Both the position numbers and the translations under genes were made by a program. Below the pieces are notes generated by a model, which was given only the letters and a program-made list of their open reading frames with translations, was not told where the DNA came from and ran no database searches. 64,000 bases of DNA from an uncultured Acidobacteriota bacterium (GTDB taxonomy: Bacteria > Actinomycetota > Acidimicrobiia > Spongiisociales > ZC4RG35), in contig CAVVCY010000003.1 in assembly GCA_963746905.1 (NCBI GenBank), positions 949,014 through 1,013,013 on the forward strand, read 5' to 3'. Shown here piece after piece: positions 10,677-26,998 of this stretch; within the stretch, counting starts at the first letter, position 1, and each line of letters opens with the position of its first letter.

Positions 10677-11093
10677 TCAGACCCGAGCGACCTTCGGATT
10701 GGAACCGGCCGCCACGTCGACAAAGTCGGGGATTGTCTTGAGGACCTCCTCGGCTCCGGCCGGGGCGTAGATGGCGAGGATCACCATCGTCTCGTAGCTG
10801 GTGTTCAGAGTGGAGTGGAAGACACCTTTCGGGATCCACACCGCATCCCCAGGAACAACGGGAAACGGCTCACCGTCGTCGATCATCTGGTTTCCCCTGC
10901 CGGCGAGGATGTAGAGGATTTCATCCGACTCGGGGTGGTTGTGACGATCGTGGCCCTTGCCCGGGAACAAGATGACGTGCATGAGGCTGCAATCGCCGTC
11001 ATCGGTGTTGTCGGTGGCGATGAGGGGCTTGATGATCCCCCAGTCGAATGTCCAGGTCGGGATCGAGTTGCGGTCTACGAGCTTGGCGGGCAT
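10677..11093 (-). CDS. cupin domain protein
   Basis: GHDRHNHPESDEILYILAGRG ... PGDAVWIPKGVFHS is the two-motif cupin signature. Confidence 0.8.
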   Translation of the reverse strand: MPAKLVDRNSIPTWTFDWGIIKPLIATDNTDDGDCSLMHVILFPGKGHDRHNHPESDEILYILAGRGNQMIDDGEPFPVVPGDAVWIPKGVFHSTLNTSYETMVILAIYAPAGAEEVLKTIPDFVDVAAGSNPKVARV

Positions 11094-11108
11094 TTTCTTC
11101 CTTGCTGT

Positions 11109-11930
11109 CTAGATGGTCATTGACTTGAAGCGGCGCATGTTCTCCGTCATCGCCACCTCGGTGGGCAGACGCTCCATCGATGACGCTCCGAAGAAGCCGA
11201 CGATGCCTTCGGTGCGGTCGAGGACATATTGAGCATCCTCGGGCTCGGCCAAGGGGCCCCCATGGCAGAGGACCGTGATGTCGGGGTTCACCTTCACCGC
11301 CGCATCGCGCATCGCCTGGATCTCGACGACACAGTCGTCGAGCGTCTTGGCGGTGTGGGCTCCGATAGTGCCTTTTGTGGTCAAACCCATGTGGGGTACC
11401 AGCACGTCGGCCCCCGCTTGAGCCATGGCGACCGCATCGTCGGGGTCGAACACATAGGGCGCCGTGACCAGGCCGAGGTCAGCGGCTTCCCTGATCATGT
11501 CGACTTCCAGGCCGTAGCTCATGCCGGTCTCCTCCAGGTTGGCGCGGAAGGTCCCGTCGATCAGACCGACTGTCGGAAAGTTCTGCACTCCGGCAAAGCC
11601 GGCATCGATCACCTGGCGGAGGAATCGGCCCATTATCCGGAAGGGATCGGTCCCACACACTCCGGCCAGAACCGGGGTGTCCTTCACGATGGGGAGCACC
11701 TCTTGGCCCATCTCCATCACGATCGCGTTGGCGTCGCCATACGGGAGCAGGCCGGCCAGCGATCCCCGGCCCGCCATGCGATAACGGCCAGAGTTGTAAA
11801 TGATGATTAGGTCGGCTCCGCCGGCTTCGGCGCACTTCGCCGACAGCCCGGTGCCGGCTCCGGCGCCGATGATCGGGTCGCCGGTCGCAACGGTCGCCTT
11901 CAATTTTGCGCGAGCCTCCTCACCTGTCAT
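11109..11930 (-). CDS. PEP-hydrolase-like TIM-barrel protein (TIM-br_sig_trns family, partner of UPF0261)
   Basis: ORF 11109..12002 trimmed to Met25 ([10 protein letters not shown]) at 11930, giving an ATGA overlap with the upstream UPF0261 gene. [49 protein letters not shown] and [13 protein letters not shown] match this family. Confidence 0.8.
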
Positions 11931-13150
11931 CTCGAGGCCTTCATATAGCCGTCCAAGGTGTCCGCCATCGCCTTCGCGAAGTCCGGGTCGTTGATGTCGC
12001 ACTCCATCTCGATGAGGTCCACCGAATCGGGAAGGTTGTCCCGAATGGCTCCGAAGAGGGCAGCGTCGGCCTCGGGGTCGTAGAACGGTTGACCCTCCAC
12101 GGCGATCATCGAAACCCCCTTGAGCGGAATGAAGAGGGTTGTCGGACCGGTCGCGGCAGAGAGCTTCTCGGCAATCTGACGGCCCAGTTCGGCGGATTCT
12201 TCTGGTGTCGTCCGCATCAGCGTCACCGAAGGGTTGTGCTCATACATGGTGCGACCCTCGAACTTGGCCGGCACGGTGTCGGGCGCTCCGAAGTTCACCA
12301 TGTCGAGGGCACCCAAGGACACCACCTGAGGGACCCCGGTCCGAGCCGCCGCCCCCATCCTGTCAGGCCCTGCCGAGAGGACACCACCCACCAATTCATC
12401 ACACAACTCGGTTGTGGTCAGGTCGAGCACGCCATCGAAGAAGCGGGCCTCGATCAGGTTCTCCATCGCCCGTCCTCCGGTGCCGGTGCAATGGAATACC
12501 AGCACTTCGTAGCCACGCTCCTCGAGAGCGGTCCGGGCCTCGGTGACGGCCGGAGTGGTGACGCCGAACATGGTCGCTGCGACCAAGGGCCGCGCCCCGT
12601 CGAGTTCGACCGGCGCTCTCTTGACCATCCCGACCATTGCAGCCGCTGCGTTGGCGAGGATCTGGGCAGAGATCGAGTTGACGCCGGCGATGTCTGTGAT
12701 CGACGCCATCATCGTGATGTCGGTGCTTCCCACGTAGCTCGAGGTGTCCCCCGATGCCATCGTGGAGAGCATCAGTTTGGGAACACCCACCGGGAGAGCC
12801 CTCATGGCACGGGTGGCAATGGCCGTGCCTCCCGAGCCTCCTGCGGCCAGGATGCCATCGAAGCGCCCCTCGCGGTACAGCTTGGAGACGAACTCTCCTG
12901 CGGCCTCGGTCATTGTGGCCACAGCCCGTCCCCGATCCGAGGCGGCGGCGAGCGAAGTTGCGTCGGCCCCGATGGAGGCCGTCACCTCGTGACGCGTCAC
13001 GTCGGGGGTGATCCCGTTTGGATCGTTGATCCCGACGTCGACGACAAGCACGTTGACTCCGTCCGCCAGGAGGCGGTCGCGGAGGTAGGCGTACTCGATT
13101 CCCTTGGTGTCGAGCGTGCCTATCAGCAGGACGGTGGGCGAGTCGGGCAC
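11927..13150 (-). CDS. UPF0261 family protein (Tm-1-like ATP-binding domain), copy 1
   Basis: ORF 11927..13318 trimmed to GTG 13150, preceded by [28 protein letters not shown] ... [32 protein letters not shown] ... [15 protein letters not shown]. Confidence 0.85.
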
Positions 13151-13204
13151 AGATTCTCCTCTCGTGGTCAGGCCCGTCGCAACGGGCGAAACGGCTCGGG
13201 TTAT

Positions 13205-13228
13205 GGTGACTGAGTGCGGGCTGTCACC
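13205..13228. promoter_or_regulatory. inverted repeat GGTGAC-N12-GTCACC in a divergent promoter region
   Basis: Seen directly. It lies 12 nt upstream of the SDR ATG (13240), between the divergent UPF0261 and SDR genes. Function not established. Confidence 0.25.
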
Positions 13229-13239
13229 GTCAACGATCG

Positions 13240-14004
13240 ATGAACGACATGTTCCGTCTCGATGGTCGGATCGCCATCGTGACCGGCGCCAGTAGGGGTT
13301 TGGGCAAGGCAATGGCAAGCGCCCTTGGGCAGGCCGGGGCGAAGGTGGTGCTGGTCAGCCGGAGCGCCGGCGACCTGGCTGGAGCGGCCGAGGAACTGAC
13401 CGCTGCGGGATGCGATGTGCTGGCGACACCGTTCGACCTGTCCAATATCGGTGCCATCGAACAGTGGGTCTCGGACACCTGGTCTGATGTCGGACCCGTC
13501 GACATCCTGCTTCATTCCGCGGGCCACCAACGTCGGGGAGCTGCCGTGGACCTGGACCACGCCGACTGGGAACAGATCCTGGCTGTGAATCTGACAGGGC
13601 CCTTCTTCCTCTCTAGGGAGGTTGGAAAGCTTCAGATGGAATCCGGGCTGGGCGGATCCCATATCTTCATTGGCTCGTTGACGACGAGCATCGGGATTGC
13701 CAACACTGCGGCCTACTCCGCCTCCAAGAGCGGGGTCGCCGGAGTGGTGAGGACCTTGGCGGTCGAGTGGGCATCGTCGGGTATTCGGGTCAACGCCATC
13801 GCTCCTGGCTATTTCCGGACCCAGCTCACCGAGGGCCTTTTCCAGGATCCAGAGCGAAGTGCATGGATCCAATCGCGGATCCCCATGGGCCGGATCGGAG
13901 CGCCTGACGACCTGGGAGGTGCCGCGGTGTTTCTCGCCTCCGATGCCTCCTTGTACATCACCGGCACGATCCTCAACGTCGACGGTGGTTGGCTCGCCGG
14001 TTGA
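13240..14004 (+). CDS. SDR family oxidoreductase (KduD / gluconate-5-dehydrogenase-like)
   Basis: IAIVTGASRGLGKA cofactor motif. YSASKSGVAGVVRTLAVEW contains the YxxxK active site. Confidence 0.9.
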   Translation: MNDMFRLDGRIAIVTGASRGLGKAMASALGQAGAKVVLVSRSAGDLAGAAEELTAAGCDVLATPFDLSNIGAIEQWVSDTWSDVGPVDILLHSAGHQRRGAAVDLDHADWEQILAVNLTGPFFLSREVGKLQMESGLGGSHIFIGSLTTSIGIANTAAYSASKSGVAGVVRTLAVEWASSGIRVNAIAPGYFRTQLTEGLFQDPERSAWIQSRIPMGRIGAPDDLGGAAVFLASDASLYITGTILNVDGGWLAG

Positions 14005-14018: not shown

Positions 14019-15470
14019 TCATCGGGGGGGCCCGAAGCCGAGCTTGCCCGGGTTGAGGATGCCGTCGGGGTCGATGGCGTCCTTGATCCCTTGCAGATAA
14101 GGCCACATCGCCCCGTACTGCTCACGCATGAACCGGCCCAACTTGACCCCGACGCCATGGTGCTCGTTGATCACACCGCCGTGGGCGAGTGACGTGCGGA
14201 CGGCAGAGTCCCACAGTCGGTCGTGCAGATCGAGCGCCTCCATCGGGTCCTTGGGAGAGTCATGGATGTAGAACCGGTCATAGACCATCACTCCCCACGG
14301 GAACCAGTGGGAGAAGTGGGCGGTGTACTGGGCCCCGTACTCGGCGAAGCCTTCCTCCACGTTCTTGCGCTTTGCCCGATAGAGGTCGGGCATGTCGTCG
14401 AAGGTGCAAACCGTGTCGGTGGTGCCGAAGATCGTCGGGGGAGCGGGTGCCTTGCCTTCGGCGTAGGGCTCGTACTTGCCATCCCACCAGGTCTTGGCGC
14501 CCCCGGGACCTAGATGAGTTCCGCCCACCTCGCCGCAGATCGCGGTGATCGCCTCTGATTCGAGGTCAACGAGACGCTGATCCCCGTCGCAGATGACGAC
14601 CAGCAGGGCCCCGGTCAGTTCCAGGCCCAGAATGTGGTTCAGCTTGTCCCGGTCGGCCTCGTCATAGAGACGCATCACGGAGGGGCGCCAACGTTGAGTC
14701 ATGATCCGCCGACCCGCTTCGAGACCATCGAAGACCGTCGCAAACTCGTACGTGAGGAAGGCCTGAGTCTCGGGCAAGGGGTCCATTCGGAGGGTGGCCG
14801 AGGTGATGACCCCCATCGTGCCCTCGGACCCGACCAGGAGTTGGAGCAGCCCGGGACCGGCCGCATGGTTTGGGACCGTGGGTGTCGACGCCAGCTGGCC
14901 CGGGGGAAGGGCAGCCTCGACCTGAAGCACCATGTCCTCCGGCTTGCCGTACTTGGTCGATCGAACGCCGGATCCGCGAGCGGCCAACCAGCCGCCAACT
15001 GTTGCGCCGAAATGGAATGAGCCAGGCTCGTGCGCAACGGCCAGGCCAAGAGGGCTGAGTGCCTCCTCGAGTTGGGGCCCGGTCACACCAGCCTCGACGT
15101 TGACGACCAAGCTGGTCTCATCGATTTCCAGGATGCGGTCCATCCGGGTCAGATCGAGGGCGATTCCCCCGTATAGGGCAAACGTCCCCCCTTGAGTGCC
15201 CGACCCACCCCCACGCGGCACCAAAGGGACCCGATGGTCGCTGGCGACCCGGACCACGTCTGCCACCTCTTGGGCGCTTCCCGGCTTCACCAGTACATCG
15301 GCGGTCGGCAACTCGATGCCGTGGAGCCTGTAGAGCTGTGACATCCACGACCAGTCGGCCGCCTGGGCAGCCAATTCCCCATGATCGACCGAGACCTGCT
15401 TCGCGCCCACCACATCCTCGAGCTCATGGCGGAGCATTCGGATCCGGTAGTCGGCGCGGGAATCAGACAT
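14019..15470 (-). CDS. FAD-binding oxidoreductase (FAD-linked oxidase, GlcD / D-2-hydroxyacid dehydrogenase-like)
   Basis: VPLVPRGGGSGTQGG FAD_binding_4 motif. About 480 aa with a C-terminal FAD-oxidase domain. Confidence 0.85.
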   Translation of the reverse strand: MSDSRADYRIRMLRHELEDVVGAKQVSVDHGELAAQAADWSWMSQLYRLHGIELPTADVLVKPGSAQEVADVVRVASDHRVPLVPRGGGSGTQGGTFALYGGIALDLTRMDRILEIDETSLVVNVEAGVTGPQLEEALSPLGLAVAHEPGSFHFGATVGGWLAARGSGVRSTKYGKPEDMVLQVEAALPPGQLASTPTVPNHAAGPGLLQLLVGSEGTMGVITSATLRMDPLPETQAFLTYEFATVFDGLEAGRRIMTQRWRPSVMRLYDEADRDKLNHILGLELTGALLVVICDGDQRLVDLESEAITAICGEVGGTHLGPGGAKTWWDGKYEPYAEGKAPAPPTIFGTTDTVCTFDDMPDLYRAKRKNVEEGFAEYGAQYTAHFSHWFPWGVMVYDRFYIHDSPKDPMEALDLHDRLWDSAVRTSLAHGGVINEHHGVGVKLGRFMREQYGAMWPYLQGIKDAIDPDGILNPGKLGFGPPR

Positions 15471-16161
15471 GATCGAGGGCTGATCCGTTCGTCGAAATGA
15501 AGGGACGCGCCATCTCGAGATGGCGGATCATGCTCTCCTCCATGTGATCGATGTGCTCGTTGACGAGTCTTCGGATGCCGTCATGATCCGAGGCTGCGAT
15601 CGACTTGGCGATCGAGGAATGCTCGTCGGCGCATTTGGCCAGGCGCTCGAGGCGGCCGGCTCCTGACATCCAGAACCGGTGAAGGCGGCGCCGCTGCTTC
15701 TCGGCAATGTCAGAGAAGAGAGTGTGGTCCGATGCCATCTGGAGAAGCTCGTGGAATCGGGCGTCGGCGGTGGACCACATTTCCAGGTCTCGTTTGGACG
15801 CGGCCATCGCCATTCTCTCGACACACTCCTGGAGGTGGTCGCCCTGCTCGTCGGTGAGGTTCTCTGAGGCTCGCATGAAGAGGGCGGCGTCGAGGAGACG
15901 GAGGACGTCGCAGATCTCGTGGACGTCCCCGGCCGTCAACCCGGCTACCGAGTAGCCACTGTTGTGGTTGCGGCGCACGAGTTGATCCAGTTCCAGCCGC
16001 TGTAGGGCGGCCCGGACCGGTGTGCGGCTGATGCCGAGCCACTGGGCGACGGCGACCTCTCCCAGGTGGTCGCCTGGTCGGACGTTCTCGCTCGTCAAAA
16101 GCTCGCGCAGTTGGACGTACGCCCTATCGGTCACGGTCGTGGGATCGGGCTCCGCCATCAC
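15463..16161 (-). CDS. GntR family transcriptional regulator (FadR/FCD type)
   Basis: N-terminal wHTH (GDHLGEVAVAQWLGISRTPVRAALQRLELDQLV) plus an all-helical FCD-like C-domain. Overlaps both neighbours. Confidence 0.9.
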   Translation of the reverse strand: MMAEPDPTTVTDRAYVQLRELLTSENVRPGDHLGEVAVAQWLGISRTPVRAALQRLELDQLVRRNHNSGYSVAGLTAGDVHEICDVLRLLDAALFMRASENLTDEQGDHLQECVERMAMAASKRDLEMWSTADARFHELLQMASDHTLFSDIAEKQRRRLHRFWMSGAGRLERLAKCADEHSSIAKSIAASDHDGIRRLVNEHIDHMEESMIRHLEMARPFISTNGSALDHV

Positions 16162-17066
16162 AAGACTCGGTCGATGAACTCTCGGTTCTCGACCTTGACC
16201 GGCACCTTCATCAGCTCCAGGACACCCCGAGCCACGTGTTCCGAATATCTGCGGAAAGATTCCTCGCCTTTCTCCTTGGTCGCCCGCATCGGGTTGCCAA
16301 TCACTCCGGTCTCGGTGAACTCATGGTGATCCATCGGGAAGTTGAAGTAGGTGTAGCCCTCGAACTCGACGTCGGGGGCACCGTCGTACTTTCTGAACGA
16401 CTCGGGCAGGAAGTCGGGGATCGACGTAGGCGTGTGCTTCGCCCTGTCCATGCGAACCAGCTTCTCGTTCCAAGCGAGACATTGCGATGTCTCCCACTCG
16501 CTCGAATGCCAGCCTGGTGTCTCCTCCGGGGGATTCTCGAATACACCTTCGACCACGCCCACATAGCGCTCCATGTAGGGCTTGACCAAGCCGATCAGGG
16601 CTCCCGTCTCATAGCGAAGTTTGCGCAACACGGGGTCGACGACCTTGATATTCGAACCGTGCCCGTTGACGAAGATGATTCGGTTGAAGCCGTGGTGAAT
16701 CAAACTTCGGGCGATGTCTTCCATCAGGGCGAGGAGGGTCGATGAGCGAACCGTGATCGTGCCTCGCCCTTCTCCGGGTCGATGCATGTGTTGCGGCGAG
16801 TAGCCGGTCCAGATGGGCGGGGTATGGAGGACCCCGATCAGGCGGGAGACGCGTGCTGAGATCTCGATCGCGGTGATGGTGTCGCAGTAGAGGGGCAGAT
16901 GAGGCCCGTGCTGCTCGGTGCTCGCCATTGGCACCAGAACCACGTCCTTGTCCTCGAGGTAGGCCTGGATGTCCACGTATGAGAGCTCGGCCAGGTTCCA
17001 GGAAACGAACTGCTCGCGAAACGCCCGCTCGGCTTCGGTGACGTCGGTCAATGCGTCGGTGGTCAT
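16158..17066 (-). CDS. creatininase family amidohydrolase
   Basis: LVPMASTEQHGPHLPLYCDT and IIFVNGHGSN are the creatininase-family metal-site motifs. Confidence 0.8.
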   Translation of the reverse strand: MTTDALTDVTEAERAFREQFVSWNLAELSYVDIQAYLEDKDVVLVPMASTEQHGPHLPLYCDTITAIEISARVSRLIGVLHTPPIWTGYSPQHMHRPGEGRGTITVRSSTLLALMEDIARSLIHHGFNRIIFVNGHGSNIKVVDPVLRKLRYETGALIGLVKPYMERYVGVVEGVFENPPEETPGWHSSEWETSQCLAWNEKLVRMDRAKHTPTSIPDFLPESFRKYDGAPDVEFEGYTYFNFPMDHHEFTETGVIGNPMRATKEKGEESFRRYSEHVARGVLELMKVPVKVENREFIDRVL

Positions 17067-18319
17067 GTTGCTTTCTCCAGTTGGGTCGTTGCGCCAGCCT
17101 GGTCGAGCAGGTCGGCGAATAGGTCGGCGACGACCTCTCCGAATCGAGGATCGTTGACGTGATGGTCGAACTCACGAACCGCGATGTCGGGTCGCAGGTC
17201 GGATCTCAGGCTCCTGGCAAACGCGGCGTCGGCGTCGGGATCCCAGAAAACGCCGCCGGGCACGTTGGGTATCGACAGCCCATTGGTGGGGATGGCAATG
17301 ATCAGCGGGCCGCTAGCGCGGTTCAGTCGCTCGGCGAAGAGCTCCCCGATTTGGGCCATCTGGCTCGCCGGTGTGCGAACCAGGGTGTACTCCGGGTTGT
17401 GGTCGTAGACAGGGCGGTCGGCGAGTTCCAAGGGGACCTGGCCACTAGCGAAGACGCTGAAGTCGATGCACCCGGGGACCACGATTTGTGGAATCCCGAG
17501 CTCTGCCACCGTCGACAGGCGACGGGGACCGCCGTCGTGGATGCCACCGACCATGGGGTCTGTCACCTCGTTGGTAGTGAAGTCGATCACCCCCACGAAC
17601 ACGCCAGCCTCGGCCAGCTCCTCCATGGCCGGTCCGCCCACACCGTTGGAGTGGAAGACAACTGCCTCATAGCCATGCTCGGCCAATCGGTCGCGGAGAG
17701 CCATGACCGCCTTGGTGGTATTGCCCAGCATCGTTACACCGACCAGGCGGCTGGCGGAGCCGTGAGGCTCGAGCCGCCTGTTGTCGTGGGCCATCGCCGC
17801 CACCGCGGTGGCCACGTTGTCAAACACCGTCGTGGCCACCGGGTTCAGCCCCATGATGTCGACCACCGTGTGCACCACCATCATGTCCGAGGTCCCCACC
17901 AGAGGACCGAACTCGTGGCGCCCGGAGGCAATCGGGCTGAGAACCACTTTGGGGACGCCGATCGGCAGCATCATCAGCGCCGCCGCTCCCATGACCGCCC
18001 CCTCGGCCCCACCGAGACCTATCGCCGCGTCGACCTTGCCTTGCAGGTAGAGGTCGGTCATCAGCGATCGCACCGCCTGGCGCATCAGCGCAACGGCACG
18101 TCCCCGGGTTCCGGCCTGGCGGACCTCATCGATGTTCGCCCCCGCATAGGCAGCGACCGCGCTGTGGTCGACATCGGGGACGATGTCGAGGGGCTCTCCG
18201 AGAATCCCGACGTCGACCACCGTCGTGGTACACCCGCGATCGATCAAGCGATCGCGGATGTACGCAACTTCCGGCCCCTTTGTGTCGAGGGTGCCGACGA
18301 TGACGACGTTGGGGACCAT
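17063..18319 (-). CDS. UPF0261 family protein (Tm-1-like ATP-binding domain), copy 2
   Basis: MVPNVVIVGTLDTKGPEVAYIRDRL ... GLGGAEGAVMGAAALMMLPIGVPKVVLSPIASG ... FHSNGVGGPAMEEL. Clearly paralogous to 11927..13150. Confidence 0.85.
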   Translation of the reverse strand: MVPNVVIVGTLDTKGPEVAYIRDRLIDRGCTTTVVDVGILGEPLDIVPDVDHSAVAAYAGANIDEVRQAGTRGRAVALMRQAVRSLMTDLYLQGKVDAAIGLGGAEGAVMGAAALMMLPIGVPKVVLSPIASGRHEFGPLVGTSDMMVVHTVVDIMGLNPVATTVFDNVATAVAAMAHDNRRLEPHGSASRLVGVTMLGNTTKAVMALRDRLAEHGYEAVVFHSNGVGGPAMEELAEAGVFVGVIDFTTNEVTDPMVGGIHDGGPRRLSTVAELGIPQIVVPGCIDFSVFASGQVPLELADRPVYDHNPEYTLVRTPASQMAQIGELFAERLNRASGPLIIAIPTNGLSIPNVPGGVFWDPDADAAFARSLRSDLRPDIAVREFDHHVNDPRFGEVVADLFADLLDQAGATTQLEKAT

Positions 18320-18321
18320 CC

Positions 18322-19326: not shown

Positions 19327-20409
19327 ATGAATCTGGCGAGTGCTGCCGGATCCGACACGTTGACCCCCGCCCGTAGCCGGCCAGAGCTGCGGCGTCGCCT
19401 GGTGCTGGGCTTGATGGTCGTGCCACTGCTGCTCGTGCTTGCCTGGGTGCTCTTCCTGGCCAACGGGACCTCGGCTGGCCCCGCCATCAGGGAGCCAGGC
19501 GAATTCCTGGTCACGCTTCTCGACGGGATCACTGTGGCCGGGCTCTTTTTCGTGGTCGCCTCAGGCTTCACCCTCATCTTTGGGCTGATGCGCACCGTGA
19601 ACATGGCGCACGGCTCGCTGTTCGCGATGGCCGCCTACATCGGGATCACAGTGCAGCAGACGATGGTCGGCAAGACCCGCAACATCGAGGCCGCCGACGT
19701 GAGCATGGCTGCCTGGTTTGTGCCACTGCTGGTTGGCGCGCTTGTGGCTGCTCTGATCGGCATCGCCATCCAACAGGTGCTGCTGCGATGGAATGAGGGC
19801 CAGGAGCTTCGCCAAGCACTGATCACCCTGGCCGTGGCTGTCATCCTCAGCGATCAGATGTTGGCATGGTTCGGCGGTCTGGCACAGCGGATGGTGTGGC
19901 CGGGAGCTGTGACCCATTTCTTCGAGATCGCGGGCCAACGCTACGCCACCTCACGCCTGTTCATGCTCGCGATCGCGATCGTGGTCGGCGTGGGCCTATG
20001 GCTCTGGCTCGGGCGAACCCGCATGGGCATGGTCATCCGTGCCGGCGTCGACGACAGGGACATGGTCCGGGCTCTCGGCATCAACATCATGGCCGTCTTC
20101 GCGATCACGTTTTTCGTGGGAGCGTTCCTGGCCGGAGTTGGAGGGATCATGGGAGCGTCTTTCGCCGGAGTTGCCCCGGGGGCCGACGGCCAGTGGCTTC
20201 TCAACTCCCTCGTGGTGGTGATCATCGGGGGCTTGGGCTCCTTGAAGGGCGCGGTAGCGGGATCGCTGTTGTTCGGTCTCGTGGTTTCGTTCTCGCCCGC
20301 GTATCTGCCACAAGAGTTCACCTTCTACAGCATCATTCTCACCTTCGTACTGCTGGCCGTGGTGCTGGCCGTCAGGCCATACGGCCTGTTCGGGAAGGCG
20401 GCTGCCTGA
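19327..20409 (+). CDS. branched-chain amino acid type ABC transporter permease (LivH family)
   Basis: GITVAGLFFVVASGFTLIFGLMRTVNMAHGSLFAMAAY matches the LivH N-terminal core. It carries an extra N-terminal TM extension, so the start is uncertain. Confidence 0.8.
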   Translation: MNLASAAGSDTLTPARSRPELRRRLVLGLMVVPLLLVLAWVLFLANGTSAGPAIREPGEFLVTLLDGITVAGLFFVVASGFTLIFGLMRTVNMAHGSLFAMAAYIGITVQQTMVGKTRNIEAADVSMAAWFVPLLVGALVAALIGIAIQQVLLRWNEGQELRQALITLAVAVILSDQMLAWFGGLAQRMVWPGAVTHFFEIAGQRYATSRLFMLAIAIVVGVGLWLWLGRTRMGMVIRAGVDDRDMVRALGINIMAVFAITFFVGAFLAGVGGIMGASFAGVAPGADGQWLLNSLVVVIIGGLGSLKGAVAGSLLFGLVVSFSPAYLPQEFTFYSIILTFVLLAVVLAVRPYGLFGKAAA

Positions 20410-21422
20410 TGATGAGCAAGTCGCGGATCGCTTTCCTTCTTGTCATTGCAGCGGTGGTGGCCCTGCCGTTGATCGGGTCTGACTTCTTCATCTCGTTCCT
20501 GATGACCAGGGTCCTGATCCTCGCCATCGCAGCTGCCTCGATCGTTTTCCTGTTCCGTTACGGGGGGATGACCTCGCTAGCCCAATTCCTCATTTTCGGT
20601 GTGGCCGGGTTCATGGTGGGCAACGCCGTTGCCGAGTCCGGTAAGGGGCTCAAGCTGGGCTGGGGGCCATGGGTTGCCGTCGCCTTCGCGCTCGGGATAT
20701 GCCTGCTCGTCGCTTTGATCCTCGGCGCCTTGGCGAGCCGGACGAGTGGGATCTATTTCCTGATGCTGACCCTCACGTACGCGGTCATCGGCTACTACTT
20801 CTTCGGCCAGGTGACATCTCTTTCAGGATTCGGGGGGATCACCGGAATTAGGCCTCCTCCGTTCTTCGATGGGCACCCCGATCGCCTGTACTACGCGGCG
20901 GTGGGCCTTTCGATTGTTGCTTATGTCGGGTTCAAGGCGATCGCACGGACTCCGTTCGGGCTGGCGTTGCAAGGGACCCGTGACGACCCGGTGAGGATGG
21001 CCTCACTTGGTTTCAATGTCCCGTTGCATCGCACCCTGGCGTTCGTGATTGCCGGGTTCGTTACCGGGTGCGCCGGGATCCTCTATATCTGGTGGAACGG
21101 CCAGATCGATCCGACATCGATCTCGATCGGCCCCACCCTCGATCTCCTCATCATCGCCGTGATCGGCGGCATCTCCTACTTCGAAGGTGCTTGGCTAGGC
21201 GCCCTGGTTTACGTGCTGGCCAACAACTATTTGCGAAACGTCCCGCTGCTCGATCAGATCGGTATCACGGAGGCTCGATTCAACACAGTGATCGGTCTTC
21301 TGGTGCTGCTGATCATGATCCTCTCACCTGAGGGGATCATGGGCATCGTCGACCGACTTGGTCGTGGTGGCCGGGGCGCCGAGCCTTCGGTGCCTTCCAT
21401 TGCGAAAGTCGAGACAGGTTGA
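20409..21422 (+). CDS. branched-chain amino acid type ABC transporter permease (LivM family)
   Basis: ORF 19866..21422 trimmed to Met182 at 20409, overlapping the livH-like stop. Polytopic, with LQGTRDDPVRMASLGFNV (LivM motif). Confidence 0.8.
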   Translation: MMSKSRIAFLLVIAAVVALPLIGSDFFISFLMTRVLILAIAAASIVFLFRYGGMTSLAQFLIFGVAGFMVGNAVAESGKGLKLGWGPWVAVAFALGICLLVALILGALASRTSGIYFLMLTLTYAVIGYYFFGQVTSLSGFGGITGIRPPPFFDGHPDRLYYAAVGLSIVAYVGFKAIARTPFGLALQGTRDDPVRMASLGFNVPLHRTLAFVIAGFVTGCAGILYIWWNGQIDPTSISIGPTLDLLIIAVIGGISYFEGAWLGALVYVLANNYLRNVPLLDQIGITEARFNTVIGLLVLLIMILSPEGIMGIVDRLGRGGRGAEPSVPSIAKVETG

Positions 21423-21493
21423 TGCTGAAGCCGGCGGACGAAACAAAAGGAAAGGTGAGTGGCATCGGCAACTCACCGTTATGAGGAGGAAAG

Positions 21494-23008
21494 ATGAGAG
21501 CATCTAACACGGGACGTGTGAGGCCAGCCTGGTGGCTGGTCATCCTCACCGTCCTCGCGTTGACGCTGGCCGCGTGTGGCGAGGATGCCACCGACGGGAG
21601 CACCACGTCGACGGGGGCCACCGCAACCACGGAAGCCCCGACGGGGACCACGAGCGCTCCCGGCACCACGGTCGCCGGAGGTGAAGCAATCAAGCTCGGC
21701 ATCCTCGCCGAGTGTGAGGGGGCCTTCGGTGGCTTCAATGAGGACGTCGTCGCCGGAGTGGTGCTGGGCCTCATCAATGGTGCCGGGGCCACCAGCGTTT
21801 CGCGGACAACCGCCCTCGAAGGGTGGACCGGCGCGGTCGCAGGTGGTCGCGAGATCGAACTGGTAGGCATCGGCTGTGGTGACGACACCGCGGACAAGAT
21901 CATCCAGGAAGTTCGGAAATTGGTCGAGGAGAACGGCGCCGAGGTCGTTATCGGCCCGCTCTCGGGCGACGAGTCGATCGCCATCGCCAACTATGCGAAG
22001 GATCATCCTGAGGTGACCTTCCTCAGTGGCATCGGCGGCGCCCAGGAAACCACACTGCAAGTGCAGGCTCCCAACTTCTTCAGGTTCCACGGCGACGGTG
22101 CCCAGTGGAATGCAGGTCTGGGTGACCTCTTGCACAACACGGCCGGTTGGGATACCGCAGCGGTCATCGCCGACGACTACAGCTTCGGCTGGACGTCATC
22201 TGCGGGATTCATCGCCGACTTCTGTGCGGTCGGTGGGACGATCGCACCCGAGCATCGGATCTATCCACCATTGGGGACGACCGACTATTCGTCGTTCATC
22301 CAGCAGCTCCCCGACCCAGATGAGGTCGACGGTTACTTCTGGGTTGTCGGCGGAACCGGTACCCAGGCCGCACTCGAGGCCTTCGTCAATGCCAAGGGCG
22401 AACTGACAGGGGCCCAGCATGCTGGGAACCTGTTCTTCAACCCCGGTCTGGCGGCAGCCCTGGGCCCGAACATCGCGGGTGCCTATGTGGGTGGGTTTGC
22501 CACTCCCCCCGGCGATGTGGTCACGCCTGAGATCACGGCGTATCTGGACAGTGCCAACGCAGCCTGGGATACCCTGGCTGGGGCCTTGACCGGCAACGAG
22601 CCGGGCGATCCGTCGATAGCGGCGGGATTCGGGTTCTTCTACGGGTTCTACAGCGGCACCACAGCGCTCGTCAATGCGCTGAATGCCGTCAATGGTGACC
22701 TGTCGAACAATCACGAAGCGCTTCGCGCTGAATTGTCCGGCATGACTGCCGAACTGCCGTATGGCCCGGTGAAGCTCGACGCGAACCGTCAGGGCATCGT
22801 CGACGTCTACCTCTCACAGCTGGTCCTCGATGGGGAGGACGTGGTCCAAAGCACGGTCGCGCTCATCCCACAGGTCGACCAGACCTTCGGAGGAACGTTC
22901 AGTGGAGACACCCCAGGACCGTCGCGAGACTTCCCCGGGTGTGAGACAGCGGATCTGCCGTGGGCCGGGAATGCAATTCCCGTCGTCGACGGCGTTCCCC
23001 AAGGATAA
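21494..23008 (+). CDS. ABC transporter substrate-binding lipoprotein (type 1 PBP, Leu/Ile/Val-binding family)
   Basis: Lipobox LTLAAC, a Thr/Ala-rich linker, then IKLGILAECEGAFGGF ... IGPLSGDESIA. Sits between the permease and ATPase genes. Confidence 0.8.
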   Translation: MRASNTGRVRPAWWLVILTVLALTLAACGEDATDGSTTSTGATATTEAPTGTTSAPGTTVAGGEAIKLGILAECEGAFGGFNEDVVAGVVLGLINGAGATSVSRTTALEGWTGAVAGGREIELVGIGCGDDTADKIIQEVRKLVEENGAEVVIGPLSGDESIAIANYAKDHPEVTFLSGIGGAQETTLQVQAPNFFRFHGDGAQWNAGLGDLLHNTAGWDTAAVIADDYSFGWTSSAGFIADFCAVGGTIAPEHRIYPPLGTTDYSSFIQQLPDPDEVDGYFWVVGGTGTQAALEAFVNAKGELTGAQHAGNLFFNPGLAAALGPNIAGAYVGGFATPPGDVVTPEITAYLDSANAAWDTLAGALTGNEPGDPSIAAGFGFFYGFYSGTTALVNALNAVNGDLSNNHEALRAELSGMTAELPYGPVKLDANRQGIVDVYLSQLVLDGEDVVQSTVALIPQVDQTFGGTFSGDTPGPSRDFPGCETADLPWAGNAIPVVDGVPQG

Positions 23009-23020
23009 GTAAGGGCCTTC

Positions 23021-23812
23021 GTGGGGCTTAGTCCCGATTCACCGACCGAAACCGCTCAGGGCGAGGCCCTCGGGCTTCGGTCGGTGACGAAGGCATTCGG
23101 AGGCCTTGTGGCCGTGGACGGCGTCGATCTCGATGTCGCCCACGGCCAACGCCTCGGCCTCCTCGGCCCCAACGGCGCTGGGAAGACAACCCTCTTCAAT
23201 CTGATTGCTGGCGACCTGAGGGCTACCTCGGGAACGATCCGAATCGGAGGCGTCGACTGCACGATGTTGCCATCGCGGCATCGGGCGAGCCTCGGAGTGG
23301 CCCGCACCTACCAGCGCACCCGCCTCTTCGGCGGTTTGACTGTGGCCGACAACCTCTACCTGGCCCAGACCGGCAAGAGTGGGCGGCATCGAGCGTTGTG
23401 GCGGTCGGCGGTGGATGATGTATATGAAGAGAAGGCCCGCGCCGCAGCAGAAAAGGTTTGGCTGGGCAAACGGATGGCCGACGTCGTCGAGGACCTTTCC
23501 CACGGCGAGCATCGTCAGCTCGAGGTGGCCATGGCGTTGGTCACCGATCCGGCGATCCTCATGCTCGACGAGCCCGCCTCGGGCCTTTCGCAGGGTGAGC
23601 GCGAGAATCTCACACAACTCCTGCTTGGCTTGCCCCGCGAGCTGACCCTGATTCTGATCGAGCACGACATGGATGTTGCGCTCAAGGCTGCCGAGCAAAT
23701 CGTGGTGATGTCCGATGGCAAGGTCGTCGCGTCGGGCACCACTGAAGAGATCCGTGATGATCCAGTCGTTCATGAGGTCTATTTGGGGGAAGCAGAGAAG
23801 GGTCACCGGTGA
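23021..23812 (+). CDS. ABC transporter ATP-binding protein (LivG-like)
   Basis: Walker A GPNGAGKTT, signature LSHGEHRQLEVA, Walker B ILMLDEPASG. Confidence 0.9.
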   Translation: MGLSPDSPTETAQGEALGLRSVTKAFGGLVAVDGVDLDVAHGQRLGLLGPNGAGKTTLFNLIAGDLRATSGTIRIGGVDCTMLPSRHRASLGVARTYQRTRLFGGLTVADNLYLAQTGKSGRHRALWRSAVDDVYEEKARAAAEKVWLGKRMADVVEDLSHGEHRQLEVAMALVTDPAILMLDEPASGLSQGERENLTQLLLGLPRELTLILIEHDMDVALKAAEQIVVMSDGKVVASGTTEEIRDDPVVHEVYLGEAEKGHR

Positions 23813-24519
23813 CCGATCAACTCCTGGAAGTTCAGGGATTGGAGGCCGGATATGGCCAGTCGAGGGTCCTCGACGGCGTCTCCTTCTCGATGGGCACCGA
23901 GTCGGTGGCGATCATCGGCCGCAATGGCATGGGGAAGACCACATTGTGCAAGGCGTTGATGGGTCTCATCCGACCCAGTGCCGGGTCGGTGAGGTTTGAT
24001 GGAGTGGTGCTCAACGGTCTGACGCCGGAAAAGATCTCGCGGGTCGGAATCGGCTATGTCCCCCAGGGTCGACGCTTGTTCCCCTCATTGACTGTCGACG
24101 AGCATCTCCGCATGTTGGCGAACGGGGCCAAGGGAAAGCGGTGGACCTCCGAAAGTGTCTATGAGCTGTTCCCACGACTCGCCCAGCGACGCCAGAATCG
24201 GGGCGGTGAGCTCTCCGGCGGGGAGCAGCAGATGCTCGCTGTCGGCCGGGCGCTGATGCTGAACAGCAAGTTGCTCCTCATGGACGAGCCATCCGAGGGC
24301 CTTGCCCCGACGATCGTCGATACTCTCATCGCCGCCGTCATCGCGCTGGTCGAAGAAGGGGTGGCAGTTCTTGCAGTGGAGCAGAACATTCACGCTGCCA
24401 CGGCGATGGCAGATCGGCAGCTGGCAATGGTCTCAGGCCGGATCGAGGCTGAGTTCGGGGCCGAGGAGCTTCGAAACGACCCCATCCTGCAACGCCGGTA
24501 TCTCGGGGTCGATGCTTAG
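23809..24519 (+). CDS. ABC transporter ATP-binding protein (LivF-like)
   Basis: Walker A GRNGMGKTT, signature LSGGEQQMLAVG, Walker B LLLMDEPSEG. GTGA overlap with the previous gene. Confidence 0.9.
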   Translation: MTDQLLEVQGLEAGYGQSRVLDGVSFSMGTESVAIIGRNGMGKTTLCKALMGLIRPSAGSVRFDGVVLNGLTPEKISRVGIGYVPQGRRLFPSLTVDEHLRMLANGAKGKRWTSESVYELFPRLAQRRQNRGGELSGGEQQMLAVGRALMLNSKLLLMDEPSEGLAPTIVDTLIAAVIALVEEGVAVLAVEQNIHAATAMADRQLAMVSGRIEAEFGAEELRNDPILQRRYLGVDA

Positions 24520-24548
24520 CCGAGTCCCGAAGAGAGGAATAACACTCA

Positions 24549-25733
24549 ATGACCGTGACCAATATCGCATTGCTGGGCTCCAAGTTCATGGGACGTGCCC
24601 ACTCCAACGCCTGGATGAGCGTTGGCAAATTCTTCCCGGAAGCCGGCGCAGCGGCTCTCCACACAGTCGCTGCTCGAAATGCCGAGGAGCTCGAGAAGTT
24701 CGCGGCCACGTGGGGTTGGTCGTCCTGGACCACCGATTGGCACGCCGCCGTCACCGATCCTGAGGTCGACCTCGTCGACATCGCAACGCCAAACGATGTC
24801 CACGCTGAACAGGCAATAGCCGCCCTCGAGGCAGGCAAGCACGTCGCCTGCGAGAAGCCGATGGCAGCGACCCTCGATGGCGCCAAGGCAATGGCCGCCG
24901 CGGCGGCTGCCGCCGACGGCAAGGCCTATGTCTGGTACATGTATCGCCGGGTGCCGGCTCTGGCTCTGGCCTATCGATTGGTTCGAGGCGGGGCCCTGGG
25001 TCGGATCTATCACAGCCGGGCCGCCTACCTCCAGAGTTGGGGCGGGCCGAGCACACCACTCCTGTGGCGATTTCAGGGCGAGGTTGCAGGTTCGGGCGCA
25101 CACGGTGATCTCAATGCCCACATCATCGATGCCGTTCGGTTCCTCACCGGGGAGGAGATCGTCACTGTCGATGGGGCGATCGAGCACACCTTCATCGAAG
25201 AGCGAGCGCTCCTCGAGGGCGGCTCGGGAGGAGAGATCGCCGGCTCCGGCGCCCACACTTCGGGGGGTCTCGGCAAGAGCACTGTCGACGATGCGGTGCT
25301 CTTCATCGGCAGACTGTCCGGAGGGGGGCTGGCCAGCTTCGAGGCGACGAGGTTGGCGACCGGCTATCACAACGCAAATCGCATCGAGGTCCACGGCGAA
25401 AGAGGAGCCATCCGCTTCGACTTCGAGCGAATGAACGAACTGGGGTTCTACGACGCCAGTGGCGAGGGCGCCAGTCAAGGGTGGACAACCATCGACGTCA
25501 CCCGAGGTGGCGACGGCCATCCCTATGCCGGCGCCTGGTGGCCCGATAGCCATGGGCTCGGGTACGAGAACACATTCGTCAATCAGGCTGCGGACATGCT
25601 CCAGGTGATCGGTGGGGGGGAGCCTGTGGTTCCCTTGCCGGACTTTGCCGACGCCCTCGAAACCCAAAAGGTGCTCACGGCGGCTCTCATGTCGGCGCGC
25701 GAGCACGCCCCGATCGACATCACCGAACTCTGA
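24549..25733 (+). CDS. Gfo/Idh/MocA family oxidoreductase
   Basis: [18 protein letters not shown] Rossmann start and the VACEKPMA motif. Confidence 0.85.
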
Positions 25734-25753
25734 CACCCAACGAGAGGAACCAA

Positions 25754-26998
25754 ATGAGCACTGCTGCACCCTTTGAGCCAACATTCATGCCCGTCGGCGT
25801 GTTGACAGCCGCCCTTCAGGAATTGACGCCACGTGAGAAGCGGGATCCCGATCCCGACCTCGCCATCGAGGAATGGCTTCAATTCGCGTCGGAGTTGGGC
25901 GCCGACTGCATCGAGCTGTCAGCGGCCGTCCATCCTGACCTCGCCGACATCCCTCCCGAGGCGATGCTGGATCCGGTGGCCAACACCCTTGACCTGCGTC
26001 AACCGTTCGACCAAAGCCGGGCTCGTCGGGTCCAAGCGGCAGTCGACTCCACCGGGGTTCGCATCGTCGACATCGCGTATTTCGACAACCTCTTACATCA
26101 GGACCCTGACATACGCCGTCAGAAGCACGAATTCATGTTGCGCGTGATGGACACCGCGGTCCTGTTGGGAGCGCCGGCCGTGGCCGGCTTCGTGGGTCGT
26201 GACCAGACCAAGTCGATGGACCAGAACCTCATCGAGTACGAAGAGAGCTTCATCCCGCTGCTGCAGGCAGCCAAAGACCGAGGCCTCATGTATCGCGTGG
26301 AGCAGTGCCCGATGCCGGGGTGGACTCCCAGTGACAACTACCACAACAACATCGGCTACACGCCTGCGATGTGGATTGCCCTCCACAAGATCGCTGAGAA
26401 GCACGGCCTGGGCGATCAGTTCAGGATCCACTACGACCCGTCGCACTCGGTGCTTATGGGTCAGGACACCCGGTCGATGTTCCAATACTTGAAGGATGAG
26501 GGCTACGCATTCCTCATCGGAGGGCTCCACGTCAAGGGTCAGGTGATCGACAGCCGCGGAGTCTCGGCATGGGGCTACGGCGGCCAGACAGTCCAGCGCG
26601 GCGACTGGATCGATGGCGAGATCTCGCCGAATCCGGCCGATCACGCCAAGGCGTGGCTCATTCAGACCGTGCTGGCCGAACATGAGCTGCCGGGCACTGC
26701 AAAGCATGACCCGCTCGCCTATCTCCAGAACCGATCGGTTGACTGGCTCGACCATCAATTGGCGCTCCGCGAATTGCTCGATCTCGACGTGGCAACGACT
26801 CCTCTGATCGTCGAGCACGAATACCCCCTGGCGCGCGTCCAGGACAAGGACAACCTTCGGCCAATACTCGAAGGGTCGATCGCATTCACCCGGTACATCG
26901 ATCAGGCGGCCGCGGCGATGTATTCGCTGCAGAACCAGGTGCTCGCGTCGCAGGGCATCCCGGTTCAGGGGGTCGGGCGAGAGGCTTATCGAAGCTGA
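25754..26998 (+). CDS. sugar phosphate isomerase/epimerase family protein (xylose isomerase-like TIM barrel, long form)
   Basis: TIM-barrel-like pattern ([24 protein letters not shown]). It is a common genomic partner of Gfo/Idh/MocA genes. Family call is moderate. Confidence 0.65.

Follow-up and report, generated by a model that had tools for sequence, protein, structure and literature searches.

We analysed a 64,000-nucleotide stretch (hereafter the window) of contig CAVVCY010000003.1, from an uncultured bacterium (assembly GCA_963746905.1), in which an earlier note had picked out a gene block at 10677-26998 as a catabolic island built around two UPF0261 (Tm-1-like) genes. Pfam scans of the long open reading frames (ORFs) between 10.6 and 27.0 kb confirmed every family and domain call in that note, with its coordinates and strand, but reduced the gene count from 17 to 16. 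These tightly packed genes form three modules, which we named A (unit 3; 19327-26998), B (unit 1 together with a divergent short-chain dehydrogenase/reductase (SDR) gene; 10677-14004), and C (unit 2; 14019-19212). The locus is a regulated catabolic cluster assembled from known superfamilies, and it contains two widespread, conserved enzyme pairs that lack an assigned reaction.

Module B contains three minus-strand genes. These encode a 138-aa cupin (10677-11093; Cupin_2, 9e-15), a 273-aa triosephosphate isomerase (TIM) barrel of the PEP_hydrolase family (11109-11930; PF09370, 1e-131), and UPF0261-1, a Tm-1-like protein of 407 aa that has the N-terminal as well as the C-terminal UPF0261 domain (11927-13150). 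The UPF0261-1 and PEP_hydrolase genes share a 4-nt ATGA overlap (11927-11930), and this stop/start overlap suggests that their products form a complex. The ATGA coupling previously claimed for the whole unit holds at this junction but not between the PEP_hydrolase and cupin genes, which are 15 nt apart. An intergenic region, read directly from the sequence (13151-13239), separates UPF0261-1 from the divergent SDR oxidoreductase gene (13240-14004, plus strand; adh_short_C2, 6e-62).

Module C lies entirely on the minus strand and begins with a xylose-isomerase-like TIM barrel of 296 aa (18322-19212; AP_endonuc_2, 1e-39). It is followed by UPF0261-2 (418 aa; 17063-18319; both UPF0261 domains), a creatininase-fold metallohydrolase (302 aa; 16158-17066; PF02633, 2e-59, 201 bits), a GntR/FCD regulator (15463-16161; GntR and FCD domains), and a GlcD-like FAD-linked oxidase/dehydrogenase, referred to below as the flavoprotein (483 aa; 14019-15470; FAD_binding_4 and FAD-oxidase_C). 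Direct reading of the junctions verified the tight packing described earlier, with a 2-nt gap between the 296-aa barrel and UPF0261-2, 4-nt-type overlaps at UPF0261-2/creatininase (ATGA) and creatininase/GntR (GTGA), and an 8-nt overlap at GntR/FAD oxidase. The GntR gene is thus placed inside the unit 2 operon by overlapping junctions.

Module A occupies the plus strand and starts with two permeases of the HAAT family (Urt/Liv-type; 19327-20409 and 20406-21422; BPD_transp_2). Next come a 504-aa solute-binding protein (21494-23008; Peripla_BP_6), whose lipobox (LAAC) bears out its description as a lipoprotein, and two ATP-binding cassette (ABC) ATPases resembling UrtD/LivG and UrtE/LivF (23021-23812 and 23809-24519; Pfam). 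A Gfo/Idh/MocA dehydrogenase (24549-25733; Pfam) and a second AP_endonuc_2 TIM barrel, of 414 aa (25754-26998; 4.5e-16), complete the module.

Three of the longest-ORF starts lay too far upstream and were reset to GTG 13150 (UPF0261-1), ATG 11930 (PEP_hydrolase), and ATG 19212 (296-aa barrel), because each of these starts has a ribosome-binding site and agrees with gene lengths in relatives. The G+C content was ~63% throughout the window with no compositional break at the cluster, so the test for a foreign island gave no compositional sign of recent transfer. The flanking genes are unrelated to the cluster. One flank carries Tad pilus genes, and the other has a membrane H+-pyrophosphatase followed by a 420-aa protein with two histidine-phosphatase (His_Phos_1) repeats (27131-30425, plus strand). 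The flanks are not syntenic, since in an 84%-identical relative, L001, the cluster instead adjoins an ILVD_EDD dehydratase gene.

The full 16-gene block was retained in relatives whose UPF0261-2 is 80-97% identical, while the flanks differed between the window and L001. In relatives, the SDR gene accompanies the block, with an identity of 61-81%. Such an arrangement goes far beyond what chance would give, and the modules recur in several phyla. The names carried by close homologues place the source organism in the class Acidimicrobiia. Several metagenome-assembled genomes (MAGs; L009-L011, L014, and L015) with cluster proteins ~82-99% identical to those of the window (SDR 61-81%) are labelled 'uncultured Acidobacteriota', whereas others are labelled Acidimicrobiia. 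The Acidobacteriota label on those records is probably a taxonomic mislabel.

Both UPF0261 proteins matched the N- and C-terminal family models above the gathering score (PF06792 and PF23189: 221 and 327 bits for UPF0261-1, 164 and 236 bits for UPF0261-2), and both exceeded the cut-off of NCBIfam subfamily NF002674. In a PDB sequence search, UPF0261-1 scored 292 bits against Tm-1 and 223 bits against MarK (9MPY). Scores against MarK were 173-223 bits for the two copies, and both were closer to plant Tm-1. MarK (Saro_1862) from Novosphingobium aromaticivorans is an ATP-dependent kinase of acetovanillone and related phenols, described by its authors as the first catalytic activity for the UPF0261 family (J Biol Chem 2025, PMC12624787). 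It was the sole functional study found in literature searches on UPF0261, Tm-1-like proteins, PF09370, Mll9387, and IolN/creatininase, and these searches returned nothing on the PEP-hydrolase-like partner or on a creatininase-coupled kinase. The earlier statement that the bacterial function of UPF0261 is undefined therefore needs amendment, in that kinase activity has been known since 2025, although from a single member that acts alone.

The LDTKG motif, which includes the D-T-K of the ATP site (D14-T15-K16 in MarK; K20 in Tm-1), is present in both copies and invariant in the alignment. UPF0261-1 keeps the LDTKG, FGVTT, FH, and EHNP motifs, and UPF0261-2 keeps D12-T13-K14 together with G199, H223, and H307; equivalents of MarK G195, H219, and H304 are retained in both. 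In contrast, the ketone-binding H348 of MarK is replaced by P351 in UPF0261-2 and by Met in UPF0261-1, as transferred through pairwise alignment. Since the Gly/His/His set is conserved family-wide, including in plant Tm-1, it gives no pointer to a phenol substrate. The MarK-type architecture with a conserved ATP motif and pocket makes an ATP-dependent kinase role the default expectation, and both copies are, judging from their sequences, probably ATP-dependent kinases. The proposal that UPF0261 is the candidate kinase of the cluster has since gained an experimental precedent in MarK (PMC12624787).

Both copies share with MarK the division into two UPF0261 domains, the D-T-K motif, and the Gly/His/His pocket, but their genomic setting is different. 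MarK works alone and lies in an acvCDEF carboxylase operon, whereas in the window each kinase has a coupled partner, one a TIM barrel and the other a creatininase-fold protein, and the surrounding genes are of the sugar type. Pfam found a biotin-carboxylase or related domain in none of the 16 genes, and an operon of acvCDEF/hpeCBAD carboxylase and phosphatase genes, as for MarK, is absent at the locus. We therefore rejected the MarK/acetovanillone pathway, as H348 is not conserved and carboxylase genes are missing. The closer relationship to Tm-1 and the lack of acvCDEF-type genes make the two copies probable kinases with other substrates. They are 41% identical to each other, and each has much closer orthologues in other phyla, indicating that they are ancient paralogues.

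The pairing of UPF0261-1 with the PEP-hydrolase-like barrel was recognised earlier as a split form of plant Tm-1, and our searches agree: the best PDB matches were Tm-1 (3WRV-3WRY) and Mll9387 (2P10), a structural-genomics entry of unknown function to which the barrel scored 367 bits. A metagenomic protein of 684 aa (P0476) fuses the two, with the TIM barrel at the N-terminus in the reverse of the plant Tm-1 order, which provides independent Rosetta-stone evidence for a physical partnership. In the neighbourhoods examined (Thermomicrobium, Rubrobacter, Streptomyces, Vibrio, Mesorhizobium, and Ensifer), the PEP_hydrolase homologue always adjoined a Tm-1-like gene. Barrels 65-77% identical to that of the window occur in Thermomicrobium, Rubrobacter, Streptomyces, Azospirillum, Vibrio, Proteus, and haloarchaea including Haloarcula. 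All that is known of Tm-1 itself is that it binds ATP and inhibits the replication of tobamoviruses, whereas the pair in the window is joined by a conserved cupin and belongs to a catabolic operon. Other UPF0261 architectures were also seen, namely a fusion to a GNAT acetyltransferase (P0399) and duplicated UPF0261 domains (P0380 and P0506). Among the 150 best family representatives there was no UPF0261-creatininase fusion, only the PEP_hydrolase fusion, the GNAT fusion, and internal duplications.

An AlphaFold2 (AF2) model of the PEP_hydrolase barrel (predicted local distance difference test (pLDDT) 75) retrieved 2P10 as the top Foldseek match. It was followed by 2-methylisocitrate lyase, carboxyvinyl-carboxyphosphonate phosphorylmutase (CPEP mutase), and ketopantoate hydroxymethyltransferase (PanB), at E ~1e-8 to 1e-6 but with a template-modelling (TM) score of only ~0.55 and 14-20% identity for a model of that pLDDT. 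Members of the isocitrate lyase/phosphoenolpyruvate (PEP) mutase superfamily, which includes these enzymes, perform C-C or P-C chemistry beside a 2-oxo-carboxylate. The suggestion that this barrel is a candidate lyase is thus plausible.

The metal motif of the cupin (H51-x-H53...E58, H93) is invariant in the alignment, and cupin-type sugar-phosphate isomerases are among its weak PDB matches. Cupins that adjoin PEP_hydrolase/UPF0261 genes in Haloarcula and Haloferax share 43-44% identity with it. Haloarchaea, Mesorhizobium, and Chloroflexota also have the trio of UPF0261-1, PEP_hydrolase, and cupin, arranged in Mesorhizobium japonicum as Tm-1-like, Mll9387, cupin, Gfo/Idh/MocA. In Thermomicrobium roseum the UPF0261/PEP_hydrolase pair directly follows a five-gene HAAT importer and precedes a GntR gene, and this importer is related to that of the window (permeases 42-45%, ATPases 52-55%, and the 475-aa binding protein 32% identical). 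The trio of Haloferax volcanii pHV3 brackets another HAAT importer. The assignment of the importer to unit 3 should therefore be qualified, because related HAAT importers also adjoin the UPF0261/TIM-barrel pair. The SDR scored best against KduD among NCBIfam models (245 bits; cut-off 339) and reached 187 bits against GolD/DthD; it resembles KduD, gluconate-5-dehydrogenase, or GolD/DthD.

We surveyed UPF0261-2 and its neighbours with a profile scan of one genome per species, which gave 80 loci, to which exact-sequence look-ups added 6; gene counts over these 86 loci were made by tblastn with the 16 window proteins. The scan covered Acidimicrobiia, Chloroflexota, Rhodothermales, Gemmatimonadota, Trueperaceae, and Zixibacteria. 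The core of unit 2 (296-aa barrel, UPF0261-2, creatininase-fold protein, and flavoprotein) occurred together in 73-84 of the 86 loci, in at least five phyla. The creatininase-fold protein was found in 84 loci, the 296-aa barrel in 79, and the flavoprotein in 73, with identities across phyla of 70-78%, 56-72%, and 43-51%, respectively; UPF0261-2 itself was 61-67% identical. Its orthogroup collapsed to a single representative at 50% clustering, and the next relative was 48% identical. An exact-sequence look-up of UPF0261-2 itself returned no recorded entry, and the representative of its 100%-identical cluster (P0001) lies on a 1.14-Mb contig. UPF0261-2 and creatininase genes were adjacent in 84/86 loci, while Thermus has the reverse order. 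A PLSDB search with the UPF0261-2 orthogroup returned only paralogues below 45% identity, and apart from a Thermus variant with a 45%-identical creatininase, no cultured plasmid-borne module C was found in PLSDB.

The creatininase-fold protein has invariant E-x-H...D, H, and H...E motifs but scored below the cut-offs for creatininase (TIGR04448; 119 vs 235 bits), MftE (92 vs 172), and IolN (85 vs 245). The 296-aa barrel likewise fell short of D-psicose 3-epimerase (125 vs 300 bits) and IolO (121 vs 300). As its PDB matches were D-tagatose/D-psicose 3-epimerases, TM0416, and YcjR (6WN6), it appears ketose-3-epimerase-like. The score for OtnI was 39 bits (cut-off 325). The flavoprotein reached 168 bits against GlcD (cut-off 568). 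Outside Acidimicrobiia it is followed by a 367-aa Fe-S protein (58 loci), which is absent from the window.

Recurrent neighbours of unit 2 included Gfo/Idh/MocA dehydrogenases, further xylose-isomerase-like barrels (among them RhaI/XylA-like ones), PfkB, TauE, and a 157-aa membrane protein. Two neighbours passed curated cut-offs: an FGGY kinase as XylB (574 vs 380 bits) and LarA as lactate racemase (500 vs 460 bits). A DeoC-type aldolase fused to ferredoxin domains and either aldehyde:ferredoxin oxidoreductases (AFOR) or molybdenum aldehyde oxidoreductases were also present. Chloroflexota have XylB, PfkB, RhaI/XylA-like barrels, LarA, the DeoC-type aldolase, and AFOR next to the core of module C. 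The neighbours in Rhodothermales and Gemmatimonadota were 3keto-disac_hyd, ThuA, DUF7133/HEAT/cytochrome c proteins, MFS, and SusCD. Cultured Thermus thermophilus has a more distant counterpart, in which the creatininase-family gene (45% identity) precedes a Tm-1-like gene, a gene of the class II aldolase family, and one for a TTT carboxylate transporter, while GntR, Zn-dehydrogenase, and sugar-phosphate isomerase genes are divergent from these.

Very large PVC-type heme-binding CxxCH or DUF7133-HEAT-cytochrome c proteins recurred beside UPF0261 modules, next to the unit 1 type in Haloferax volcanii (pHV3 246152-265327, L096) and the unit 2 type in Rhodothermales/Gemmatimonadota (L003-L005). 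They may be extracytoplasmic sugar dehydrogenases that feed UPF0261 pathways.

The importer of module A scored below every curated urea-system cut-off, with permeases at 151 bits for UrtB (cut-off 250) and 95 bits for UrtC (296), and ATPases at 204 bits for UrtD (304) and 220 bits for UrtE (286). Its binding protein is unusually large, about 80-100 aa longer than usual, and had no NCBIfam match. The Gfo/Idh/MocA protein, whose PDB matches were 4H3V, levoglucosan dehydrogenase (LGDH; 6A3F, 267 bits), and scyllo-inositol/L-glucose dehydrogenase (5YA8), reached 312 bits against the LgdA model (cut-off 650); it is presumably an NAD-dependent sugar or polyol dehydrogenase. The 414-aa barrel gave no PDB or NCBIfam sequence match, and it has 5910 homologues, of which the 120 best are 78-99% identical and mostly from Actinomycetota. 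In the loci examined it always followed the Gfo gene. A fold search with its AF2 model (pLDDT 74) retrieved ketose 3-epimerases and xylose isomerase at only 12-17% identity; these generic matches did not serve to assign a specificity.

Close orthologues of the barrel fell into three contexts. One operon (L097, 3521-14121) contains the HAAT importer with a binding protein of roughly 500 aa, Gfo, the 414-aa barrel, a true xylose isomerase (XylA; 638 bits against a cut-off of 533), and xylulokinase (XylB; 576 bits against 380), and its binding protein, Gfo, and barrel are 71%, 78%, and 80% identical to those of the window. A second (L102, 3480-12578) has the same importer/Gfo/barrel/XylA set without XylB. 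This context suggests that one HAAT subfamily transports a pentose, a pentitol, or a similar neutral solute. In a third (L098), a single operon runs through importer, Gfo, barrel, XylA, PEP_hydrolase, XylB, UPF0261, and cupin, and adjoins ILVD_EDD dehydratase, SGL lactonase, FAH, and alcohol dehydrogenase (ADH) genes, a Weimberg-type set. Elsewhere (L101, 7488-11245; L103, 7442-11245), Gfo/414-aa orthologues 81-83% identical directly follow TIM and RpiB paralogues and lie among three Dak-type kinases (Dak1/Dak2). TIM, RpiB, and Dak are given as the enzyme set of tetritol (erythritol/threitol) catabolism in a passage of PMC10733421 that cites Huang 2015 and Barbier 2014.

We also examined how the cluster may be regulated. 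A 114-bp region from which units 2 and 3 diverge, flanked by the genes of the 296-aa barrel and the first permease, holds TTGTATACAGGTTTGTACACA (19264-19284), which consists of two GntR-type palindromes. Its boxes, TGTATACA and TGTACA, were the only two exact matches in the 64-kb window. The operator sequence is identical in L001 despite the different flanks, related boxes occur in L007, L010, L016, and L018, and the box is absent from L017, which has no GntR. A regulator with both GntR and FCD domains thus lies near a palindromic sequence with a GT-N-AC core, which we regard as a conserved candidate GntR operator. No GntR-type box was found upstream of UPF0261-1 or the SDR (13151-13239), so that the operator evidence for co-regulation covers units 2 and 3 only and leaves out unit 1 and the SDR. 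An imperfect inverted repeat (GGTGAC-N12-GTCACC, 13205-13228) does lie between SDR and UPF0261-1, but since it is not conserved in L001 it may be due to chance or be a lineage-specific operator. A promoter/terminator scan gave no more sites than in shuffled sequence.

The units are also conserved together in other genomes. Besides the full block in relatives, 11 Chloroflexota loci have units 1 and 2 on one strand and at most 10 kb apart, and in six of these (L028, L049, L050, L073, L074, and L084) they form a single co-directional array with short gaps. The first part of the array reads TIM, UPF0261-1, PEP_hydrolase, cupin, (glyoxalase), TIM, Gfo, and membrane protein, and the second part flavoprotein, Fe-S, TIM, UPF0261-2, creatininase, TauE, and Gfo. 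Units 1 and 3 are interleaved in L098, and module B occurs with Gfo in Mesorhizobium.

No gene of the block reached a curated equivalog cut-off in any of the equivalog models tried. In line with the earlier note, no characterised pathway matches the gene set. Membership in the levoglucosan, Thermotoga-type inositol, creatinine, urea, glycolate oxidase, and Otn acid-sugar systems was rejected on these scores; for glycolate oxidase the Fe-S partner is also absent from the window, and for UrtABCDE the binding protein lacks an NCBIfam match. A sulfonate/sulfolactate pathway was considered because TauE neighbours were found in 15 loci and in Streptomyces, but it was rejected, as the window contains no TauE and no sulfo-specific enzymes were seen.

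Partial likenesses to known systems were also seen. A Gfo/Idh/MocA dehydrogenase followed by a xylose-isomerase-like barrel is also found in YcjS/YcjR (E. coli glucoside 3-dehydrogenase and 3-keto-glucoside 4-epimerase) and LgdA/LgdB, LGDH was among the best PDB matches of Gfo, and YcjR was one of the PDB matches of the 296-aa barrel. The window differs in having a HAAT-type rather than a sugar CUT1/CUT2 importer, an LGDH model score below the cut-off, and a 414-aa barrel without sequence match to a solved or curated family. The Thermotoga maritima IolG/M/N/O set shares a Gfo-type dehydrogenase, the creatininase-family IolN, which opens a carbocyclic diketone, and the TIM-barrel epimerase IolO (TM0416). 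However, IolM is missing from the window, the IolN and IolO models scored below cut-off, and the inositol pathway has no counterpart to the two UPF0261 kinases, the flavoprotein, or the PEP-hydrolase-like barrel.

Pathways for four-carbon acid sugars (LtnD/DenD, OtnI, OtnK, and OtnC; PMC12994016) and tetritols (EltD, LerK, LerI, and DerI; PMC10733421) share the general plan of a dehydrogenase, a TIM-barrel isomerase, and a kinase of an unusual family, followed by C-C cleavage. In the Thermus variant, the creatininase/UPF0261 pair is likewise accompanied by a gene of the class II aldolase family, a TIM barrel, a dehydrogenase, and a transporter for carboxylates. In contrast, Pfam detected no DUF1537 kinase, class II aldolase, or Dak domain in the window genes. 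For the importer, UrtABCDE/LivHMGF share the five-component architecture and gave the best-scoring models, but besides the low scores, the binding protein is longer in the window and the orthologous operons end in xylA-xylB.

On balance, we favour, with guarded confidence, a composite catabolic locus that acts on a neutral carbohydrate of small size (a rare sugar or a polyol, probably C4-C5) and on the keto and acid sugars derived from it. The family and fold affinities of Gfo, the 296-aa barrel, the SDR, and PEP_hydrolase fit sugar chemistry. The neighbourhood of XylA/XylB, Dak/TIM/RpiB, FGGY, and PfkB points to neutral sugars or polyols and not directly to an acid as the imported compound. 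The earlier idea of uptake and breakdown of a possibly nitrogen-containing sugar acid or hydroxy acid needs moving towards a sugar or polyol and the keto or acid compounds made from it. From gene content, junctions, the conservation of genes and operator, the retained kinase and metal motifs, and the fold relationships observed above, we infer every substrate and every reaction below; the step assignments are much less certain than the overall reading.

In module A, the Urt/Liv-type importer and its lipoprotein binding protein would bring in a small sugar or polyol, Gfo/Idh/MocA would oxidise a hydroxyl to a ketone, and the 414-aa barrel would epimerise or isomerise the keto sugar, as in YcjS/YcjR or LgdA/LgdB. 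The product would enter XylA/XylB or Dak/TIM/RpiB routes in sister genomes; here, the block offers no candidate kinase other than the UPF0261 genes and no candidate lyase other than the PEP_hydrolase barrel. In module B, UPF0261-1 would phosphorylate an intermediate with ATP, the metal cupin would isomerise it, the PEP-hydrolase-like barrel would cleave a C-C bond beside a 2-oxo- or 2-hydroxy-carboxylate, and the KduD-like SDR would adjust a keto group.

In module C, the epimerase-like barrel, the kinase UPF0261-2, and the creatininase-fold metallohydrolase could process a second branch or by-product. By analogy with IolN, the metallohydrolase might act on a lactone, cyclic diketone, or activated ester, and the GlcD-like flavoprotein would finally oxidise a D-2-hydroxy acid. 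LarA and the Fe-S partners elsewhere suggest a lactate- or glycolate-type by-product. The GntR/FCD protein would repress the divergent A/C promoters at the TGTATACA-TGTACA operator and be released by a carboxylate intermediate. FCD-type GntR regulators usually sense carboxylates (LldR, GlcC, GntR, and UxuR), which fits an acid intermediate as inducer.

Several points weigh against this carbohydrate reading. No substrate was identified, every equivalog model fell below its cut-off, and xylA and xylB are absent from the window. The known substrates of HAAT-family importers are amino acids, urea, amides, and aromatic acids, with no sugars among them. MarK, the one UPF0261 enzyme that has been characterised, acts on phenols, and the Thermomicrobium neighbourhood of UPF0261/PEP_hydrolase looks aromatic or heterocyclic. 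The least secure step is the role given to the creatininase-fold enzyme. Module B has no operator that would tie it to the GntR regulator, and each module is also found alone (L097 and L102 have A; Haloarcula, Vibrio, and Rubrobacter have B; Rhodothermales and Gemmatimonadota have C), so the three may not form one pathway.

These last observations, the solitary modules and an operator present between A and C with no such box at SDR/UPF0261-1, are also what favours the strongest alternative, in which three independent modules for different compounds merely neighbour one another in a sugar-utilisation region. We consider this unlikely, although it is compatible with a locus for carbohydrate use. 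Co-localisation recurred in varied arrangements and separate lineages (B with C in Chloroflexota, A with B in L098, and B with Gfo in Mesorhizobium), and the full block was kept while the flanks differed between the window and L001.

Slightly less probable is catabolism of a nitrogen compound, such as a lactam, ureide, creatinine-like ring, or amino/amido sugar acid, imported by a urea/amide-type ABC system. The creatininase-fold protein would then open a cyclic amide, possibly after ATP activation by UPF0261-2, as in 5-oxoprolinase or N-methylhydantoinase. The good creatininase family match, with creatininase as the closest equivalog (119 bits), the best transporter scores against the Urt urea system, the translational coupling of kinase and hydrolase, and the conserved metal ligands are consistent with it. 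However, the creatininase and Urt scores all fell below cut-off, and the creatininase family also holds the C-C hydrolase IolN. Elsewhere the creatininase/UPF0261-2 pair lies among sugar genes with MFS, SusCD, or TTT transporters, and Pfam found no deaminase, amidase, aminotransferase, or urease-type genes in the cluster. The nitrogen-containing substrate floated in the earlier note drew only on the creatininase and Liv names, and we consider it weak.

Very unlikely is phenolic or aromatic catabolism, in which UPF0261 would phosphorylate a phenol like MarK, the HAAT binding protein would take up an aromatic acid, and the VAO-type flavoprotein and the cupin would act on the ring or side chain. 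The binding protein has distant PDB matches to 4EY3, 3NND, and 3N0X (E 1.6e-06 to 2.4e-04), which we take to be the Rhodopseudomonas set that binds lignin-derived aromatic acids. The genes around the Thermomicrobium pair encode subunits of PEP-utilising enzymes as well as FAH, cyclase, and xanthine-dehydrogenase-type proteins, and MarK, the only UPF0261 enzyme with known activity, has its phenol-contacting G195, H219, and H304 conserved here (PMC12624787). Against this stand the family-wide occurrence of those residues, including in plant Tm-1, the change of H348 to P351, the closer relationship of both copies to Tm-1, the lack of acvCDEF-type carboxylase, ring-cleavage dioxygenase, and CoA-ligase genes in the cluster (Pfam), and a context of Gfo, three sugar-type TIM barrels, a KduD-like SDR, and XylA/XylB, Dak, FGGY, and PfkB neighbours.

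Within the carbohydrate reading, a broader and more speculative proposal concerns the family as a whole, and we regard it as possible but somewhat doubtful. UPF0261 may be a general family of ATP-dependent kinases that act as obligate two-component enzymes with interchangeable partners, in which case the two pairs would represent two new, widespread steps of sugar/polyol catabolism. The partners would be an isocitrate-lyase-like TIM barrel, ancestral to plant Tm-1, and a creatininase-fold metallohydrolase. Phosphorylation of the enol or hydroxyl of a keto sugar would activate it for C-C cleavage or for ring or ester hydrolysis, and UPF0261 pairs would replace the canonical FGGY/PfkB/Dak kinases and class I/II aldolases.

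The locus and the comparative data place both the TIM-barrel-coupled and the creatininase-coupled UPF0261 proteins in carbohydrate/polyol catabolism, with each kinase-partner pair forming a discrete, highly conserved orthogroup. The UPF0261 and TIM-barrel pair spans bacteria, archaea, fungi, and, as Tm-1-like proteins, all land plants. No matching pathway and no literature on the partner were found. The view that an undescribed system is centred on UPF0261 and its TIM-barrel partner is supported. The Urt/Liv-type importer subfamily may carry neutral sugars or polyols, which would widen the substrate range of HAAT transporters. Cultured, genetically tractable carriers include Haloferax volcanii (pHV3), Mesorhizobium japonicum (pMLa), Thermomicrobium roseum, and Thermus thermophilus (megaplasmids).

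Further genes of the window deserve mention. A DUF4147 and MOFRL protein of the glycerate-kinase/hydroxypyruvate-reductase type (33433-34653, minus strand) could take glycerate from a C2/C3 branch. Two genes of the PPDK/PEP-synthase type (PPDK_N, PEP-utilizers, and PEP-utilizers_C; 44270-46891 and 53731-56193, both minus strand) are separate but sit less than 10 kb apart. Uncommonly, a P-type (E1-E2) cation ATPase (59172-61967, minus strand) is fused to a C-terminal hemerythrin HHE domain, which suggests that the sensing of O2, NO, or iron controls a metal pump.

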